The position numbers and the translations under genes were made by a program. DNA of 64,000 nt from an uncultured Latescibacterota bacterium (GTDB taxonomy: Bacteria; Latescibacterota; UBA2968): positions 3,893,987 to 3,957,986 of the forward strand of contig OX638317.1 in assembly GCA_951812545.1 (NCBI GenBank), read 5' to 3'. This document shows positions 4,235-11,385 of this stretch, piece by piece (positions within the stretch are counted from its first letter, which is position 1; each line of letters begins with the position of its first letter). The notes beneath the pieces are model-generated. The model saw nothing but the letters and a program-made list of their open reading frames with translations, did no database searches and had not been told where the DNA came from.

Positions 4235-4700
4235 CTGGATCGCGGCTAAAAACTTGCCGCGATGACGGCACTATTAATAGGATTGATTGATGATAAGCAA
4301 AACCTACGCGATGTGTGACTTTAAAAATAAATACACTATACACCCTGTCATGCTGAGGAAGCCGATAGGCTGACGAAGCATCTGTTACCCATGCACACTG
4401 TTGAGACAGCAGATTCTTCGACTCCGCTGCGCTCCGCTCAGAATGACAGTGCTCATTTGACCTTTGATCTTGAAGTCACACATGACGTCAAAACCTTCTG
4501 GATCGCGGCTTTAAGCATGCCGCGATGACGGCACTATGGATAGGATTATACTATGACAAGCAAACCTTCTGGATCGCGGCTAACATCATGCCGCGATGAC
4601 GACGATATTAATGGGTTTGATTGATGACAAACAAACCTCTGGATCGCGGCTAACATCATGCCGCGATGACGGCGACGGGCGAGGCATGCCTCGCCCCTAC
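4235..4700. repeat. Cluster of REP-like hairpins: four CTGGATCGCGGC-loop-GCCGCGATGACG units in ~70 bp tandem units, plus one GTAG-type hairpin
   Basis: Copies at 4235, 4498, 4569 and 4639; GGGCGAGGCATGCCTCGCCCCTAC at 4677-4700. Confidence 0.9.
4306..4488. mobile_element. MITE family A, copy 1
   Basis: TIRs ACGCGATGTGTGACTT / AAGTCACACATGACGT; 8-bp TSD CAAAACCT (4298-4305, 4489-4496); internal TGTCATGCTGAG...GAAGCATCT / AGATTCTTCG...CTCAGAATGACA doublet. Confidence 0.88.
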
Positions 4701-4714
4701 ATTGATGTGTAAGG

Positions 4715-5710
4715 TCAACGCATTTTCAAAATCCGATTGATCTCTGTCGCATTCAATTTTCTTTCAAAACGCGGACCGTATTTGGCGACAACGCGCGAGG
4801 ACACATACGTTGCGAGCCTCGCGGCCTGAGCCGCGTCATACCCCCGGGTCACAGCAAACAAATACGCCCCGGCAAACGAATCGCCCGCGCCATTGGTATC
4901 CACAGCATCTACCACAAAACCCGGCACCTGCAACACATCACCACCGTCGCAAACCCGGGCACCATCAGCACCATACGTCAGAGCCAAACCGCCTACTCGT
5001 TGACGCAACGCACCAAAAGCCTCTTCTGTTGTCTCGGCACCAGTAAATATCCTGCCCTCATCTTCATTGCAAAACAGCATATCCACGCCTGCATCCACCA
5101 ATGCAGTCATCCTATCCTTAAAAGCAGCCACAATAGACGGATCGCTCAGCGTGAGCGCGACCTTTGTACCGTGCGCCTGCGCCACCTTTTGCGCCGCCTG
5201 TGCCGCTTCAAAGCCATCGTCTGCCGCAATTAGATAACCCTCGATATAAATAAACTGGCTGTCGGCAATCACAGCATCCTCAACCTGCGCCACACCAAAC
5301 GTACTCGTAATCCCCAAAAATGTATTCATCGTGCGATCCGCATCCTCTGTAATCATCACCAGACACTTGCCCGTAACCCCTTGCCCGAGATGTGACGGAT
5401 TGGACGCCACCCCTGCAGCACTGAGATCGCGAAGATAAAATTCGCCATCTGCATCCTCAGCCACCTTACATCCGTAATATCCCTGTCCACCACAATTGGC
5501 CAGCGCGATCATCGTATTGGCTGCCGAACCGCCCGACGAGCGCGCCATCTCTTTCCCGCCCAAAGCATCGATCAACGCGCGCTGACGATCTCCATCGATC
5601 AGCGTCATCACACCCTTATCGATCCCCATCGCCTCGAAAAACGACGGATCAACCCGAAACTGAATATCCACCAGCGCATTGCCCAGCCCATACACATCGT
5701 ATTGACGCAT
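4715..5710 (-). CDS. PfkB-family carbohydrate/adenosine kinase
   Basis: GLGNALVD, SGGSAANT and DTNGAGDSFAG motifs. Confidence 0.9.
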   Translation of the reverse strand: MRQYDVYGLGNALVDIQFRVDPSFFEAMGIDKGVMTLIDGDRQRALIDALGGKEMARSSGGSAANTMIALANCGGQGYYGCKVAEDADGEFYLRDLSAAGVASNPSHLGQGVTGKCLVMITEDADRTMNTFLGITSTFGVAQVEDAVIADSQFIYIEGYLIAADDGFEAAQAAQKVAQAHGTKVALTLSDPSIVAAFKDRMTALVDAGVDMLFCNEDEGRIFTGAETTEEAFGALRQRVGGLALTYGADGARVCDGGDVLQVPGFVVDAVDTNGAGDSFAGAYLFAVTRGYDAAQAARLATYVSSRVVAKYGPRFERKLNATEINRILKMR

Positions 5711-5722
5711 AAGATCTCCTCA

Positions 5723-6032
5723 ACGAATAGACGAATAGACGAATAGACGGAGCGGGGTACAACTGGCCGCCTCTCAGGCCAGTTCATAGACGAATAGACG
5801 AATAGACGAATAGACGAATAGACGAATAGACGAATAGACGAATAGACGAATAGACGAATAGACGAATCAACGAATCAACGAATCAACGAATCAACGAATC
5901 AACGAATCAACGAATCAACGAATCAACGAATCAACGAATCAACGAATCAACGAATCAACGAATCAACGAATCAACGAATCAACGAATCAACGAATCAACG
6001 GAACGAGGTACAACTGGTTCAGGCCAGTTCAT
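5723..6032. repeat. Compound 8-bp tandem repeat (ACGAATAG)x3 + hairpin + (ACGAATAG)x9 (ACGAATCA)x17 + hairpin
   Basis: Directly visible; GTACAACTGG...CCAGTTCAT palindromes at ~5750-5787 and ~6005-6032. Confidence 0.97.
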
Positions 6033-6104
6033 AGACGAAAAAGAAAAAAACTCTATATGTCGTTGTACCGCAACATTAAAATTATAGTGATCAGAAAAAA
6101 CTTC

Positions 6105-6193
6105 CTGGATCGCGGCTTAAAGCATGCCGCGATGACGAAGGCACGGAGACTGCGGGTAGCAGTCAGCGGGCGACTACAGGGGGTCGCCCCTAC
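6105..6193. repeat. REP-like hairpins (CGTC-type at 6105-6137, GTAG-type at 6168-6193)
   Basis: CTGGATCGCGGCTTAAAGCATGCCGCGATGACG; GGGCGACTACAGGGGGTCGCCCCTAC. Confidence 0.85.
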
Positions 6194-6202
6194 AAACCAC
6201 AC

Positions 6203-7510
6203 TCATGGATGTAATCTATTGGGCGTGCGGGACAAAAAAGTCGTCTCGCGCACATTGGACAAGCCGAGCATAACCATAAGCAGGCGCGACAGGCCAAAAC
6301 CAAATCCCCCGTGCGGAGGACATCCGTACTTAAAAAAATCGAGATAAAACTGGATAACCTCTAAATCCAGCCCTTTCTCTCTCGCCTGAGTCCTCAGAAC
6401 ATCGGGACAATGTTCGCGCTGCGCCCCTGTAGTGATCTCCACACCATGGCAGAGCAGGTCAAAGCTCCTGGTCAACTCAGGATATTCTGCATGGCGCATG
6501 TGATAAAATGGTCGCACAGACACCGGGTAATCTATCACAAAAACATAATCGCACCCCCGGGTTTTGCGGATATATTCACCCAGCAGACGTTCTCCCTTTG
6601 GATCGAGGTCGCCTTCCCGCTCTGGCGTGTGGCCCAGTTCAGACAACACTGCCAATGCCTCGGCCATTGTAACGCGCGGAAAAGGCAGCGCTGGCACCGC
6701 AAGTTCAACACCGCAATTTTCGGCAATAGCGTCACCGTGTCTTTCTCGCACTACTTGAATAACATACTGGAGCCATGCTTCTTCAAATGCCATCACATCC
6801 TCGTGACTATCAATCCATGCGATCTCGACATCCACACTGGTAAACTCCGTCGTATGGCGCGAAGTAAATGAGGGATCGGCGCGAAAAACGGGCGCAATCT
6901 CAAACACGCGATCAAAACCAGACGCCATCGCCATCTGTTTGTAAAACTGGGGCGACTGCGCCAGATAAGCTGTGGTATTGAAATACGGCAGCGCGAACAA
7001 CTCAGCTCCCGATTCACTGGCTGTGCCCATAAGCTTGGGAGAGTGAATTTCGATAAAATGATCTCGCATCCAATACTCGCGCATAGCCCCTTCAACAGTA
7101 GTTTGTACCTCAAAAATCAACCGATTGCGCGGAACGCGAAGATCGAGATGTCTCCAGTCCAGCCGATGATCAATACCCGGTGCATTTTCGGAAAACGGAT
7201 CCAGAGGCAATGGCGATTTAGCTACATTGACAACACTCAGTTCTGCAAGCTGAATTTCAACACCACCCAGACGAACATTCGGATTTTCTACAACGCGTCC
7301 GCTTATAGTTATCGCCGATTCTCGCGTGAGAGCAGAAACCCGCTCTGCCAACGCCCCTGTCTTTTCGTGAACAACCTGTACACTTCCCGTGCGATTTCTC
7401 AAAATGAGAAATTGGACATGCTTCTGGTCGCGCAGGGCATGCACCCATCCGTGAAGGGTAACGGTTTGGCCGATATATTTGGACAGTTCACATATTGCTA
7501 TGTATTTCAT
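6203..7510 (-). CDS. aspS: Aspartate--tRNA(Asp/Asn) ligase, short archaeal-type, probably non-discriminating
   Basis: OB-fold N-terminus (GWVHALRD), AYLAQSPQFYKQ, FRADPSFTSRHTTEF, GCPPHGGFGFGLSR; 435 aa, lacking the bacterial GAD insertion. Confidence 0.92.
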   Translation of the reverse strand: MKYIAICELSKYIGQTVTLHGWVHALRDQKHVQFLILRNRTGSVQVVHEKTGALAERVSALTRESAITISGRVVENPNVRLGGVEIQLAELSVVNVAKSPLPLDPFSENAPGIDHRLDWRHLDLRVPRNRLIFEVQTTVEGAMREYWMRDHFIEIHSPKLMGTASESGAELFALPYFNTTAYLAQSPQFYKQMAMASGFDRVFEIAPVFRADPSFTSRHTTEFTSVDVEIAWIDSHEDVMAFEEAWLQYVIQVVRERHGDAIAENCGVELAVPALPFPRVTMAEALAVLSELGHTPEREGDLDPKGERLLGEYIRKTRGCDYVFVIDYPVSVRPFYHMRHAEYPELTRSFDLLCHGVEITTGAQREHCPDVLRTQAREKGLDLEVIQFYLDFFKYGCPPHGGFGFGLSRLLMVMLGLSNVRETTFLSRTPNRLHP

Positions 7511-7535
7511 GACAGATTCCTTTTGATTTCAGGTA

Positions 7536-7608
7536 ATGTGGAAAAGATGCTTCGACTCCGTTTCACTCCGCTCAGCATGACAAAAACGCCTGACATGCGT
7601 AACGTCAG
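7536..7608. mobile_element. Remnant of MITE family B (half REP doublet plus one TIR) in the aspS 5' leader
   Basis: GGAAAAGATGCTTCGACTCCG...CTCAGCATGACA followed by TGCGTAACGTCAG, resembling the end of the element at 13965-14118. Confidence 0.6.
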
Positions 7609-7616
7609 TCAGACAC

Positions 7617-7652
7617 AAAAAAAGCCCGTTGTCAAAAAATATGACAACGGGC
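7617..7652 (-). terminator. Intrinsic terminator of the aspS attenuator
   Basis: mRNA GCCCGUUGUCA-loop-UGACAACGGGC followed by U7. Confidence 0.9.
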
Positions 7653-7676
7653 ACTTTCATGATGGCACAAGACGAC

Positions 7677-7775
7677 CTATGCCGGTCCAGCCCGTCGCCG
7701 GATCGGATTATTATCGTCATTATTATTGCCAGTGAACTGAGCGATTTGGAAATAGTGTATATGCATGGTATTCAT
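7677..7775 (-). CDS. Putative aspS leader peptide MNTMHIHYFQIAQFTGNNNDDNNPIRRRAGPA
   Basis: Seven consecutive Asn/Asp codons (7727-7707). ATG overlaps the upstream stop (ATGA). GGCGACGGGC (7699-7690) is complementary to the terminator 5' arm. Confidence 0.82.
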   Translation of the reverse strand: MNTMHIHYFQIAQFTGNNNDDNNPIRRRAGPA

Positions 7776-8509
7776 CCAGTTTTTCTCCCACCAAAAACAG
7801 CCAGCTCAAACAGCTTGAAATAACAATCTACATCTGAAAAACCAATAGCGCTGAGCCATTCACATTGATCTTCAACAGACGCGAGAATATTCGCCTGCTT
7901 ATCATCGCGATAATAATAAGCCCTTGCAATTTCATCGCGAGATGCATTTGGATCTCGCAGCGTGACAGAATCGTAAAGCGAGTCAATAAAGCGATCGGCA
8001 AAACGCGACTCAACCCACTTTGACGGAGAGCGAACATGCTCGACATTGACAAACACGCCATAGGGTGAAAGCAGATCAAAAATCTCGCCATAAACCTCGC
8101 GCTTGCGTTCATCGCTCTGGTGATGAATTGAAAAACCCGACACAATCGCGTCATACGGCGCGTCATCTGCAACCAGACTGAGCCAATCGGACGTCACATA
8201 ATCCCCAATAACAAAACGATGTTGCGACGCCGTTCCCGCAAATCGTTTCCGCGCAGCCTCGATCATAGCCTCAGAAAAATCCACAAAAACACCGCGCGCA
8301 TCCGGATGGTATTCAATAACCGCAGCGCCGAGTATGCCATCGCCACATCCCAGATCGAGCACGGTATTCACCCTGTGATCATCCGCATTGATCACCCGGC
8401 ACATAACGGCAATCTGCTCATCGGACAGCGGAATTGCCTGCCGAATATTCTTGAGATATTTCTGCGCCAGATCCCGCGCCTGCCAGGCTGTATCTTTGCG
8501 TTTGCCCAT
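7772..8509 (-). CDS. Class I SAM-dependent methyltransferase (CmoA-like)
   Basis: VLDLGCGDG motif I; YDAIVSGFSIHH. Confidence 0.88.
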   Translation of the reverse strand: MGKRKDTAWQARDLAQKYLKNIRQAIPLSDEQIAVMCRVINADDHRVNTVLDLGCGDGILGAAVIEYHPDARGVFVDFSEAMIEAARKRFAGTASQHRFVIGDYVTSDWLSLVADDAPYDAIVSGFSIHHQSDERKREVYGEIFDLLSPYGVFVNVEHVRSPSKWVESRFADRFIDSLYDSVTLRDPNASRDEIARAYYYRDDKQANILASVEDQCEWLSAIGFSDVDCYFKLFELAVFGGRKTG

Positions 8510-8511
8510 GA

Positions 8512-9705
8512 TTACAACACCTTATTCCGATACAAACATAAAATCGACAACATGCCAAAAAACAAAAACGCAACACCCGATACAAACAGTGCTGTACCCA
8601 ATGAGTAAGTATCATTGACCCAGCCAATCGCGGGACCCATGATTACAAACATCAGGCGACCGACGAGATTTTTAACCGACAGCACAGTCGCGCGAATATC
8701 CGAACTCACCAGGCGATTGATATAGTCATTCAGCACGGGACCATTAATCCCGCGCACAAGAGAAAAAGTGAACAAAATCGGCAGTGCCCACAGCGTTTGA
8801 AATTGGCTCAAAAGCAAATAAGCCAGCGACGACAAAATAATAAAAAATATTAACGACCAACGACGACCGAGCAAACCCTCAACGCGATAAGCCATCAACG
8901 CAAACACACCAACCGAAAAATTTAAAACCGCCCACCCAATACCAAAATACCTCAGCGGCAAATCGACCACCTGAAAATACGGTTGCACAAACCAGACAAT
9001 CACAAAAGTAGAAAGCCCCACGAGCGACGAGTAAAGAATAAGCCACTTGACCTCAGCGTGCCCATGAAGCGCGTACCGAACGATCCTGAGTATGCTCGTA
9101 AAACTACTCTCGCGATTCGCGATCCTGTATCGCTCTGGCTCAACAAGCGTAAACGCAATAGGCACTGTAAGTATCACCAGCACGGCTTCGACATAAAGCG
9201 GCGTACGCAAACTAATCAGCGCCAACTCACCGCCAATAATGGCAGCGATACCCTCGGAAAAATTGCCAACAGAACCCAGGCGACCCGCATATTTTTGAAA
9301 TTGCTCTTTTCTCTCCAATTCGATCAATGTATCGTAAAGCAACGCACTATCTGCGCCTGAAATCAAGCTACCGCCAATCCCGAGCAGCAGTTCCACGAGC
9401 AAAAATTCGTAAAACGTATAAGCAGTCGCATACAGCACAAATGCAACAGCCCCGATAACACTGCCAATGATAAGCGTGAATTTGCGCCCCACCACATCCG
9501 CGATATATCCCGATGGCACCTCGAACACAATCAGCGACACCGAAAACGCCGCTTGCAAGATCAGAATATCTTGCATATCGAGCCCATTCTCCTGAAAAAA
9601 CGGAATGAGCACGGGCATGATAAGCAGCATCCATCTCAAAGCTTTGTGAACATAGAGCTTCCATATATTATGGTGCAAAGCGTTCATTGTTTTTTTATTT
9701 CGCAA
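8512..9705 (-). CDS. MFS transporter
   Basis: About 12 hydrophobic segments; EVPSGYIADVVGRK motif A; SGADSALLYD. Confidence 0.9.
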   Translation of the reverse strand: MRNKKTMNALHHNIWKLYVHKALRWMLLIMPVLIPFFQENGLDMQDILILQAAFSVSLIVFEVPSGYIADVVGRKFTLIIGSVIGAVAFVLYATAYTFYEFLLVELLLGIGGSLISGADSALLYDTLIELERKEQFQKYAGRLGSVGNFSEGIAAIIGGELALISLRTPLYVEAVLVILTVPIAFTLVEPERYRIANRESSFTSILRIVRYALHGHAEVKWLILYSSLVGLSTFVIVWFVQPYFQVVDLPLRYFGIGWAVLNFSVGVFALMAYRVEGLLGRRWSLIFFIILSSLAYLLLSQFQTLWALPILFTFSLVRGINGPVLNDYINRLVSSDIRATVLSVKNLVGRLMFVIMGPAIGWVNDTYSLGTALFVSGVAFLFFGMLSILCLYRNKVL

Positions 9706-9757
9706 CGCAAATTATTGGACGTCGAACCTGACTCCTGCTCTAAGGGGGACTGGGGGT

Positions 9758-9798
9758 ATCCTGCTCATCCTTTCATCCTGAAAATCCTGATTCTGACA
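9758..9798. repeat. Short degenerate ATCCT-periodic intergenic repeat
   Basis: ATCCTGCTCATCCTTTCATCCTGAAAATCCTGATTCTGACA. Confidence 0.5.
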
Positions 9799-9804
9799 GT
9801 GTTT

Positions 9805-11385
9805 TTAATACCCCACTGCCAGGCCATCCTTGCGGGGATCGGAAGCCGCGCAATAACCATCGTCCAGCTTATAAATGAGTTGGCCCCCGCCATATCCAAT
9901 AGCTGGCGGAATTTGGATATCGTGTCCGCGGGCGCGAAGATCGTCCAGCACACCCGCATCCACGCCAGGCTCAATCCCCACATTTGAGCCACCAAAAACC
10001 TGCCATCGGGGCGCATCGCACGCAGCCTGCGGATTTTGACCATAAGCAAAAATCCGAACCATCATCTGCGCGTGACCTTGCGGCTGCATATGCCCTCCCA
10101 TAACGCCAAATGACATCACGGGTTGGCCCTCTCGGGTCGCAAACGCCGGAATAATCGTATGATATGGTCGCTTGCCCCCATCCACGCGATTGGGATGGCC
10201 CTCTGTCAAAACAAAACCCGCGCCCCGGTTCTGCATGCTAATACCCGTATCCGGAATCACAATACCAGATCCAAAACCCATAAAATTGGACTGAATAAAC
10301 GAAACCATCATCCCATCTTCATCCGCCGCCGTGAGATAAACCGTATCCCCACGCGGCATGCCAAAAGTGGGCACCCCTGCCCTTTTCAGATCAATCAACC
10401 TCGCGCGCTGAGCCAGATAATCCGGATCGAGCAATTGCGCGAACTCAACATCCCGCGTATTCGGATCAGACACATACCTGTGCGTATCCGCATACGCCAA
10501 CTTCATCGCCTCAATCTGAAGATGCAAACTATCTGCCGAATCAACAGCATACCCGGACAAATCCCAATTCTCCAATATCCCCAGTGCAATAAGCGCCGCA
10601 ATACCCTGACCATTCGGCGGAATTTCGTGCAGCGTGTAATCCCCAAAACCCATTGTCATCGTATCCACCCAATCTGCCCGATGCTCCGATAGGTCTTCTT
10701 CTCTCATCGCGCCGCCAGTGCGTTTTGCATGCGCAGCGATCTTCTCTGCCAGATCGCCCGAATAGAACGCCTCTCCTCTTGTCTCCGCAATGCGCTCAAG
10801 CGTATGCGCCTGCGCTTCACACACAAATTTCTCCCCAATTTTGGGCGCGCGACCCTCCGGTGCAAAAGTCGCCATCCAATCGGGCATATCGCCGTAATTA
10901 TACACAGCCTGTGCCCAGCTATGTCCCGTAATAGGCGAAACCACAAAACCATTGCGGGCATAGTGAATCGCGGGTTCAAACAACGCCTCAAACGGCAACA
11001 CGCCAAACCGCTTTGAAACCTCGGCCCACGCCGAAACACAGCCGGGCACAGTCACAGCATCCCAACCCCGCTGGGGCATCTGAGCACGCGCTGCAAACAA
11101 TTCGGGCGACCACGCCTTTGGGGAACGCCCCGATGCGTTGAGACCATGTATTTGCTCACCATCCCACAAAATGCAAAACGCATCGCTACCTATACCATTC
11201 ATATTGGGTTCAACAACCGTAAGCGCCATAGCTGTCGCCAGAGCCGCATCTGCGGCATTGCCACCTTTGAGCAACATCTGCAACCCCGCCTGAGCAGCAA
11301 GCGGTTGAGAAGTCGCAACCACATTGCGCGCCATAACCGGCATGCGCTGTGAAGAATACGGAAAAGACCAGGATAATTCGGGCAT
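9805..11385 (-). CDS. ggt: Gamma-glutamyltransferase family protein
   Basis: GGNAADAALA, nucleophile DTVYLTAAD, RPYHTIIP, FGVMGGHMQPQG, SDPRKDG. Confidence 0.93.
   Translation of the reverse strand: MPELSWSFPYSSQRMPVMARNVVATSQPLAAQAGLQMLLKGGNAADAALATAMALTVVEPNMNGIGSDAFCILWDGEQIHGLNASGRSPKAWSPELFAARAQMPQRGWDAVTVPGCVSAWAEVSKRFGVLPFEALFEPAIHYARNGFVVSPITGHSWAQAVYNYGDMPDWMATFAPEGRAPKIGEKFVCEAQAHTLERIAETRGEAFYSGDLAEKIAAHAKRTGGAMREEDLSEHRADWVDTMTMGFGDYTLHEIPPNGQGIAALIALGILENWDLSGYAVDSADSLHLQIEAMKLAYADTHRYVSDPNTRDVEFAQLLDPDYLAQRARLIDLKRAGVPTFGMPRGDTVYLTAADEDGMMVSFIQSNFMGFGSGIVIPDTGISMQNRGAGFVLTEGHPNRVDGGKRPYHTIIPAFATREGQPVMSFGVMGGHMQPQGHAQMMVRIFAYGQNPQAACDAPRWQVFGGSNVGIEPGVDAGVLDDLRARGHDIQIPPAIGYGGGQLIYKLDDGYCAASDPRKDGLAVGY

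Follow-up and report, generated by a model that had tools for sequence, protein, structure and literature searches.

Transcription attenuators of the trpL, hisL, pheL and pheM type combine a short open reading frame (ORF) that carries a run of cognate codons with an intrinsic terminator and an antiterminator, the 5' strand of which falls within the 3' portion of the ORF; the position of the ribosome decides which fold is formed. T-box riboswitches, found upstream of synthetase genes, likewise switch between a terminator and an antiterminator, in response to whether a tRNA is charged. Here we describe an element that shows the three structural features of the trpL type and stands upstream of aspS2, a gene for an archaeal-type aspartate--tRNA(Asn) ligase (AspRS2), in a 64,000-nucleotide (nt) stretch of the genome of an uncultured Latescibacterota bacterium (GenBank assembly GCA_951812545.1, contig OX638317.1, positions 3,893,987 to 3,957,986; hereafter the window). 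The element is very probably an attenuator of aspS2, and it is probably keyed to asparagine.

The leader peptide of this element ends in R-A-G-P, the C-terminal core of the SecM arrest sequence FxxxxWIxxxxGIRAGP. In the accessible portions of the literature on this motif (PMC12992588, PMC10987492), RAGP supports arrest when transplanted into other arrest peptides, stalls the ribosome in Bacillus subtilis YwcI with Gly in the P site and a requirement for Pro, and is strongly avoided by bacterial proteomes. As in the RAPP-like peptides (SecM RAGP, ApdA/ApdP RAPP, ApcA RAPG, YwcI RAGP), the C-terminal R-A-G-P is kept as amino acids in a small upstream ORF, and a stall with Gly in the P site and Pro in the A site is predicted here as well. 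The enzyme also has a described counterpart: according to the accessible part of PMC4206432, Thermus and Deinococcus make asparagine with a second AspRS and GatCAB, and Thermus thermophilus and Deinococcus radiodurans resemble this host in that they lack asnA and canonical asnB and have, in addition to a bacterial AspRS, AsnRS and GatCAB, an extra archaeal-type non-discriminating AspRS. Our preferred reading, to which we give a probability of about 0.55, is a two-site model in which arrest at RAGP clamps the switch OFF and hunger for Asn-tRNA further upstream in the leader turns it ON.

The leader and its alternative RNA folds

All coordinates are positions in the window, and the leader, the terminator, aspS2 and the two genes upstream (for a methyltransferase and a transporter of the major facilitator superfamily, MFS) lie on the minus strand. 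The element and its gene comprise the following features (MFE, minimum free energy; aa, amino acids):

7775-7677, minus strand: leader ORF, 32 codons from the first ATG, encoding MNTMHIHYFQIAQFTGNNNDDNNPIRRRAGPA and ending in the stop codon TAG (7679-7677); unannotated
7766-7677, minus strand: the same frame read from the second ATG (7766-7764), the start kept in relatives, giving the 29-aa peptide MHIHYFQIAQFTGNNNDDNNPIRRRAGPA
7727-7707, minus strand: control-codon run AAT AAT AAT GAC GAT AAT AAT (NNNDDNN)
7683-7706, minus strand: conserved peptide tail P-I-R-R-R-A-G-P (CCG ATC CGG CGA CGG GCT GGA CCG)
7688-7686 and 7685-7683, minus strand: predicted arrest site, with Gly in the P site and Pro in the A site, respectively, placed after published RAGP peptides (accessible portions)
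7699-7690, minus strand: antiterminator 5' strand (segment 2), GGCGACGGGC, inside the R-R-R-A codons
7664-7683, minus strand: inner hairpin GGCAUAGG/CUUGUGCC, stacked within the antiterminator and spanning the stop codon in the MFE structure
7652-7643, minus strand: terminator 5' arm (segment 3), GCCCGTTGTC, common to antiterminator and terminator
7652-7624, minus strand: terminator stem GCCCGTTGTCA/TGACAACGGGC, 11 pairs (seven G-C) with a 7-nt loop
7617-7642, minus strand: terminator loop and 3' arm GACAACGGGC (3' arm 7633-7624), then seven T (7623-7617)
6203-7510, minus strand: aspS2, the putatively regulated gene, encoding a 435-aa class-II archaeal-type aspartate--tRNA(Asn) ligase (assigned by NF003483, TIGR00458, Pfam and solved chains)

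The AspRS2 protein scores 493.8 bits against NCBIfam NF003483 (curated cut-off 353) and 399.5 bits against TIGR00458 (cut-off 368.4). The solved chains closest to it are the archaeal AspRS 3nel and 1b8a and the T. thermophilus AspRS2 1n9w, which was deposited as 'non-discriminating and archaeal-type'. By its sequence, aspS2 encodes an archaeal-type non-discriminating AspRS2, predicted to charge tRNA-Asn with aspartate. An earlier note on this DNA had read the locus as a leader-peptide attenuator before an AspRS of this type, and that layout is borne out, as its parts are conserved and co-vary.

The 32-codon ORF and the NNNDDNN run that the note had described are both present on the minus strand. 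Among 14 genus loci, the second ATG (7766) is found in 13 and the first in five. The Asn/Asp run expected in related leaders is also found: the 12 codons ahead of the tail carry 3-7 Asn in 26 of 26 loci. Given the genome's 3.8% Asn, the chance of at least five Asn in seven codons is approximately 1.5e-6 per window of that size, and of 426 perfect-stem terminators in the genome, just this one is preceded by a proper Asn-rich short ORF. In five leaders of the second family (L022, L028, L062, L063 and L064; L and G numbers denote loci and genomes) the run mixes Asn with 1-4 His and Asp, for example VNPDHHNNHHD, and its codons are nearly all NAY. Queuosine is carried by the tRNAs for Asn, Asp, His and Tyr.

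The strong intrinsic terminator that had been placed about 105 nt before aspS consists of the 11-bp stem and the seven T, and its end lies 106 nt before the aspS2 ATG (7510). Terminators of -17 to -24 kcal/mol are present in all 19 loci analysed. The claim that a leader strand pairs fully with the terminator 5' arm likewise holds, GGCGACGGGC (7699-7690) pairing with GCCCGUUGUC (7652-7643) at all 10 positions, two of them G-U. The terminator arm pairs with this leader better than with 499 of 500 shuffled leaders. In eight of nine distinct loci the arm finds its best partner between +4 and +17, counted from the tail's first Pro codon, and 0-19 of 500 shuffled leaders pair equally well; the ninth, exceptional locus has a broken gene. 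Segments 2, 3 and 4 show three-way covariation at three positions (19 loci), G-C pairs giving way to A-U pairs or the reverse in both helices; this is the stem covariation that had been anticipated for relatives.

Antiterminator folding was modelled on transcripts cut after the terminator 5' arm or after the loop, with the A site of the ribosome on the control codons. A ribosome on any of codons N1 to D5 makes the antiterminator the structure of lowest predicted free energy (-27 to -28 kcal/mol), and one on the first control codon does so in 14 of 14 lineages; the full-length RNA is predicted to fold as the terminator. Both of the states proposed earlier are thus recovered, and in these models terminator and antiterminator are mutually exclusive. 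In the ribosome-free transcript a competing fold displaces the antiterminator in seven of 14 lineages, and the antiterminator still forms in the other seven. The UCCGGC/GCUGGA hairpin, which the note had suggested would sequester segment 2, is seen in the ribosome-free fold of this genome and is not conserved outside genus-type sequence.

The element has escaped existing annotation. Rfam cmscan of positions 6000-10000 with E up to 10 gave no family that fits, and a T-box or other known RNA family was rejected on that basis; the sole match in that interval is isrN, on the opposite strand with E = 1.8. NCBIfam has no family for the leader peptide. A search of the 46-aa L022 leader against 5.8 billion predicted proteins returned no match but itself, so these leader ORFs are evidently uncalled by gene finders. 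In RNA-library contigs (runs X15, X16, X17 and X20), contigs from relatives reach the leader down to 7658-7663 (X15, X17, X20) and one X15 contig spans aspS2 up to a relative's U-run, and no contig crosses 7652-7617. This gap is no evidence for termination, because these are assembled contigs only, a hairpin can break assembly, and no DNA run stands alongside.

The RAGP tail and a proposed two-site switch

P-I-(R/Q)-R-R-A-G-P, a tail overlooked by the earlier reader, closes every intact leader (26 loci). Its eight codons occur in 11 distinct nucleotide versions, and all eight third positions vary: Ala is GCT, GCA, GCG or GCC; Gly is GGA, GGT, GGG or GGC; the last Pro is CCG or CCA; Ile is ATC or ATT; and the first Pro is CCG, CCA, CCC or CCT. 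Only three of the 16 first and second codon positions are variable (Pro to Ala once, Arg/Gln in the third codon, and Arg to Gln once in the fourth), and R-A-G-P itself has no replacement in any of the 26 intact leaders. The hypergeometric probability that the 11 variable sites take in all eight third positions is 2.2e-4, and for RAGP alone the third-position bias has P = 2e-3. Since third positions vary without replacement, and the Ala-Gly-Pro codons lie largely outside the pairing, selection acts on the peptide and not on the RNA alone. The tail has decayed at two loci (RRWRPP and RRRRHP), at both of which aspS2 has internal stops.

The spacing of the tail is fixed on one side and loose on the other. 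The register of RAGP to the antiterminator strand is identical in all lineages, the 14 nt before the Gly P site being the antiterminator strand, and the terminator starts 30-37 nt past the Pro codon in 18 of 19 loci (21 nt in L064). The stop codon, by comparison, stands 1, 2, 3, 4 or 57 codons past RAGP, and L024 has no stop codon ahead of the terminator. A ribosome waiting at a stop three or more codons past RAGP would leave the antiterminator strand uncovered. A classical stop-codon mechanism does not account for this pattern, and arrest at RAGP would, the stop being variable and the RAGP register fixed. Upstream of RAGP, and counting from the P-site Gly, all 26 loci have Asn at -11, and -10 is mostly Asp or Glu.

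Of the 24 possible orders of R, A, G and P, RAGP is the least frequent in the 4391 long ORFs of the genome (11 observed, 41.9 expected). RAPP and RGPP are also the rarest of their orderings, with observed/expected ratios of 0.26 for RAGP, 0.29 for RAPP and 0.12 for RGPP, in agreement with the published avoidance of RAPP-like motifs. No signal or membrane segment was found in the 29-32-aa peptide (maximum 15-aa Kyte-Doolittle mean 0.04).

Five lineages (L023, L024, L067, L026 and L068) carry a second Asn-rich short ORF approximately 150-250 nt upstream of the RAGP leader. These tandem ORFs have an antiterminator-like strand and a terminator of their own, without RAGP; their peptides end, for example, in NPDSNPNNYGIQWRDLVLP and NPNPNRDNSGTQRRDRL. 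The five loci are apparent double attenuators, and the presence of such a RAGP-less leader and terminator in several lineages points to a need for tight closure.

In the two-site model, Asn-tRNA would be plentiful in the default state, and the leading ribosome would pass the Asn/Asp codons and arrest between RAG and P, with Gly in the P site and Pro in the A site. The arrested ribosome would mask nt -14 to -1 before the P site, that is, the antiterminator 5' strand (7699-7690). With segment 2 masked, the terminator (7652-7617), far enough past the arrest site to remain unobstructed, would form and transcription would end before aspS2. In a shortage of Asn-tRNA-Asn, and perhaps of Asp-tRNA too, the ribosome would wait earlier, on the AAU/GAY run, leaving segment 2 free to pair with segment 3, and RNA polymerase would read into aspS2. 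AspRS2 would act as the first enzyme of tRNA-dependent asparagine synthesis: more of it would give more Asp-tRNA-Asn, which GatCAB would convert to Asn-tRNA-Asn. The arrest motif would take the place of the precisely placed stop codon and 1:2 hairpin of trp/his-type attenuators, and a default-OFF clamp would be sensible because AspRS2 would mischarge tRNA-Asn on purpose. A further layer is conceivable, if a long shot: arrest at RAGP might be tuned and not constitutive, with Asp inserted for Asn when GatCAB lags, or Asn bound in the tunnel, altering its strength, so that the nascent peptide would sense the fidelity or output of the pathway on top of codon hunger.

Distribution, host physiology and competing readings

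The leader follows aspS2. Within the genus, aspS2 is present in 14 of 21 genomes, and each of these has a single occurrence of the leader pattern; among the seven genomes that lack aspS2 it is found in one (G011) and in none of the other six. A reversed-pattern control gave no matches in the genus genomes. Across 168 genomes of the phylum, 34 have an AspRS2-like match at E <= 1e-70. Where aspS2 is at least 51% identical, an intact RAGP leader is present in 25 of 28 genomes, across three families of Candidatus Latescibacterota; of the remaining three, two have decayed tails, and in G079 aspS2 has been fused into an operon and no leader precedes it. The six AspRS2 homologues of 40-43% identity, in small genomes, have no leader. 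Relatives whose protein is as little as 63% identical still have the whole element before aspS2.

A pattern scan of 185,579 species (one genome per species) gave 24 matches: 18 leaders, 17 of them with aspS2 downstream, and six chance matches inside long ORFs of G+C-rich genomes. Sixteen of the 18 leaders are in records labelled Latescibacterota or Latescibacteria; the other two, L045 and L055, are in records titled Gemmatimonadota and 'bacterium', and their peptides are identical to those of two relatives in the order to which the window belongs. Of the 61 loci matched in a metagenome scan with the pattern, L133 is the one true leader; the other 60 are chance matches in G+C-rich DNA. Two independent scans found the element to be single-copy in the genome of the window, and no other RAGP or Asn-rich leader, for example before gatCAB or asnS, was found in that genome. 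The element is confined so far to one class of an uncultured phylum. Upstream genes differ among genera and families, and in several genus members insertions stand between the leader and the methyltransferase gene; what moves as a block is therefore leader, terminator and aspS2.

The asparagine physiology of the host is less tidy. The absence of asnS that would have suited the earlier note's scheme is contradicted by a canonical asnS (487.7 bits, above cut-off), while its expectation of gatCAB is supported by the finding of gatB. The genome also has a second aspS, of bacterial type (594 aa), so that tRNA-Asp charging is independent of aspS2 and the note's proposal that the leader senses both products of one enzyme is weakened. 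No asnA was found in the genome and no asnB above cut-off (best scores 122.7-128.9 bits, cut-off 267). This gene set (no asnA, no asnB above cut-off, gatB and AsnRS present) is the set described for Thermus and Deinococcus in the accessible part of PMC4206432. Four genus genomes (G011, G012, G013 and G019) have neither aspS2 nor asnB above cut-off; in these, either the bacterial AspRS is non-discriminating, or an AsnB-like protein makes Asn, or external Asn is needed. The idea that aspS2 is the sole route to Asn-tRNA was dropped in view of asnS, an AsnB-like gene, and those four genomes without aspS2 and canonical asnB. The gatB gene was found twice with the same scores (G000:C1:41958-43403 and 5927178-5928623), near both ends of the single contig; the ends of this circular assembly probably overlap by approximately 50 kb, an overlap that may explain a 9% 'contamination' figure.

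Several observations weigh against the two-site model or against parts of it. The physiological logic is loose, as AsnRS is present together with a divergent 595-aa AsnB-family protein (128.9 bits, cut-off 267) that might still make Asn. Among 41 relatives, canonical asnB is present in four of 18 aspS2-bearing genomes and in seven of 23 others, so no anticorrelation is seen. Some lineages swap several Asn for His in the control run (up to four His), and Asn sensing leaves the His unexplained. No leader promoter or clear ribosome-binding site was identified. In G011 (L049 3860-4000 = G011:C19) an intact leader and terminator follow the methyltransferase and aspS2 is deleted, and in G023 and G040 aspS2 is apparently broken and the RAGP leader still intact. 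In G011 the terminator of a convergent gene stands where aspS2 would follow. As for the arrest, RAGP alone is often insufficient, and most RAPP-like motifs tested in proteins do not arrest (PMC12992588, PMC10987492, accessible portions). The upstream SecM elements FxxxxWIxxxxGI are not found in the leader, where N-N-P-I-R/Q-R precedes RAGP, so the leader is not a SecM homologue and has only the core in common with it. The attenuator design is apparently possible without RAGP, because the upstream tandem copies lack it. The model also presumes that the leader is translated, that RAGP arrests the host's ribosomes, that the switch responds to Asn, and that the footprint of these ribosomes (-12/-15 to +15) is the one assumed from other bacteria.

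The RAGP-less tandem copies and the poor record of RAPP-like motifs tested in proteins (accessible portions of the two sources above) both speak for a classical hungry-codon attenuator (trp/his/pheST) and nothing more, in which the RAGP tail has no arrest role and is conserved otherwise, for example through a double constraint with RNA pairing or as a free peptide. All the elements of such an attenuator are present and conserved, and the genus-type sequence has a competing hairpin able to sequester segment 2 without a ribosome. We nevertheless consider it unlikely that this is the whole explanation: the Ala, Gly and Pro codons are mostly outside the pairing yet show only synonymous change, with all four bases used at third positions, a pattern that RNA pairing would not lead one to expect; a stop codon 1 to 57 codons past RAGP means that in many lineages a stop-bound ribosome cannot mask segment 2; and the sequestering hairpin is not conserved (seven of 14 lineages). 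Peptide-level selection on the tail would also suit an arrest peptide of the TnaC/SpeFL kind, in which the Asn/Asp/His-rich chain with RAGP senses free Asn or Asp in the exit tunnel, or the residue inserted at the Asn codons, and the strength of arrest, in place of codon hunger, decides the fold. Polar positions are semi-conserved (Asn at -11, mostly Asp or Glu at -10), the His substitutions suit a chemical role in the tunnel better than they suit Asn-codon sensing, and force-driven release is unlikely for a 27-45-aa chain that would lie wholly inside the tunnel at arrest and that lacks any hydrophobic segment. Against this, the placing of the Asn otherwise varies freely, their number (3-7) is what a run of codons would give, Asn is abundant in the RAGP-less upstream copies too, and the ligand is purely hypothetical, so that we hold this reading to be quite improbable.

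The most sceptical reading, that aspS2 is not regulated here at all, would have the hairpin end an MFS-methyltransferase operon, aspS2 transcribed from a promoter of its own, and the ORF fortuitous or a small protein acting elsewhere. It draws on the abutment of the ORF on the methyltransferase gene in this genome, the lack of an identified leader promoter, the survival of leader and terminator after the methyltransferase in G011 though aspS2 is gone, and the absence of any RNA-library contig across the terminator (contigs only). We regard it as highly improbable, given that the leader and terminator track aspS2 and not the methyltransferase (upstream genes differ and insertions intervene), that the antiterminator covaries, that conservation of the leader is codon-periodic, and that six of the seven genus genomes without aspS2 are also without the leader. 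The two-site model, in which codon hunger and RAGP arrest are both at work, remains the reading that we prefer.

The surroundings of the element include three further features:

9705-8512, minus strand: MFS transporter gene
8509-7772, minus strand: gene for an S-adenosylmethionine (SAM)-dependent methyltransferase (Pfam), a neighbour within the genus only and outside the conserved unit
7536-7612, minus strand: inserted repeat element of approximately 75 nt between the terminator and aspS2 (from locus comparison and contig depth)

The overlap (ATGA) of the leader ATG with the methyltransferase stop, from which the earlier note had suggested translational coupling, does exist here, but it occurs in only one of 14 genus loci. 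Since the first ATG is itself present in five of 14 loci, and insertions or other genes stand upstream elsewhere, coupling to the methyltransferase is not conserved and was rejected. The inserted repeat contains GTCATGCTGAGCGGAGTGAAACGGAGTCGAAGCATC and, among genus loci, is found only at L008, L009 and L020 (including this genome); in most relatives, which lack it, the terminator lies approximately 35 nt before the aspS2 start codon. The insertion is not part of the switch. RNA-library contigs of several runs stack on it (7546-7613, with a depth of up to approximately 1600 at 7546-7579), and this pile-up marks it as a widespread repeat; a sequence resembling it also occurs near 4385-4483. A short tandem repeat at 5784-5870, one frame of which reads SSIRLFVY repeated, sits upstream of a sugar-kinase gene (4715-5710, minus strand), where a gap separates that gene from the end of aspS2.

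Comparison with known systems

No description of an Asn-codon leader or an arrest motif before a synthetase gene was found in the literature searched, including the accessible portions of PMC2965389, PMC12992588 and PMC10987492, although the supplementary lists of such surveys might include one; the accessible part of Naville and Gautheret (2010) has no mention of an Asn leader. The published RAPP surveys covered annotated ORFs only, with analysis of downstream genes for RAPP and RGPP (PMC12992588, PMC10987492, accessible portions). If the two-site model is right, this element would be the first leader-peptide attenuator keyed to asparagine and the first control element described for the AspRS2-type tRNA-dependent asparagine pathway. 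The element is short and self-contained, and its motif works on Escherichia coli ribosomes; it is therefore directly testable in vitro in spite of its origin in an uncultured phylum.

In TnaC and SpeFL, termination is Rho-dependent, a small-molecule cofactor is needed, and stalling turns the operon ON. The present element is like them in that a ribosome stalled on a leader ORF would decide transcription into the downstream gene. It differs in having an intrinsic terminator and in that arrest would be expected to promote termination. Antibiotic-sensing leaders such as that of mef/msrD also switch between terminator and antiterminator through stalling on a leader ORF (PMC4335068; bioRxiv 10.1101/2021.11.29.470318; accessible portions). 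Those leaders are drug-dependent and inducing, whereas two stall sites with opposite outcomes, and no drug, are proposed here. In contrast to T-boxes, charging would be sensed through a translating ribosome and not by direct binding of tRNA, and there is no T-box match in Rfam for positions 6000-10000 with E up to 10.

We know of no leader-peptide control of the AspRS2 genes of Thermus or Deinococcus. Compared with the route in those bacteria, aspS2 here is patchy (14 of 21 genus genomes) and is not anticorrelated with asnB.

The leader differs from the RAPP-like peptides as follows: at 29-46 aa it has no signal or membrane segment, so force-driven release is unlikely to apply; the upstream motif of SecM is missing; its gene encodes a tRNA synthetase, where theirs are Sec/YidC, metal or redox genes; and its predicted output is an intrinsic terminator, such that arrest would turn the gene OFF where theirs turns it ON. 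If the model holds, this would be the first SecM-like motif of the RAPP family wired into an intrinsic-terminator attenuator as a default OFF clamp, and RAPP-like arrest would then reach translation and amino-acid metabolism as well as secretion, metal and redox genes. Measured against the trpL, hisL, pheL and pheM type, Asn (plus Asp) would be the amino acid sensed, the peptide has an invariant, non-regulatory RAGP tail, the position of the stop codon is not conserved, and a 1:2 hairpin appears not to be conserved. The placement of the RAGP core points to an OFF state built in a new way, which would amount to a new answer to the timing problem of attenuation: the ribosome would be held on the antiterminator strand itself, in place of the stop codon and 1:2 hairpin on which the classical attenuators rely.

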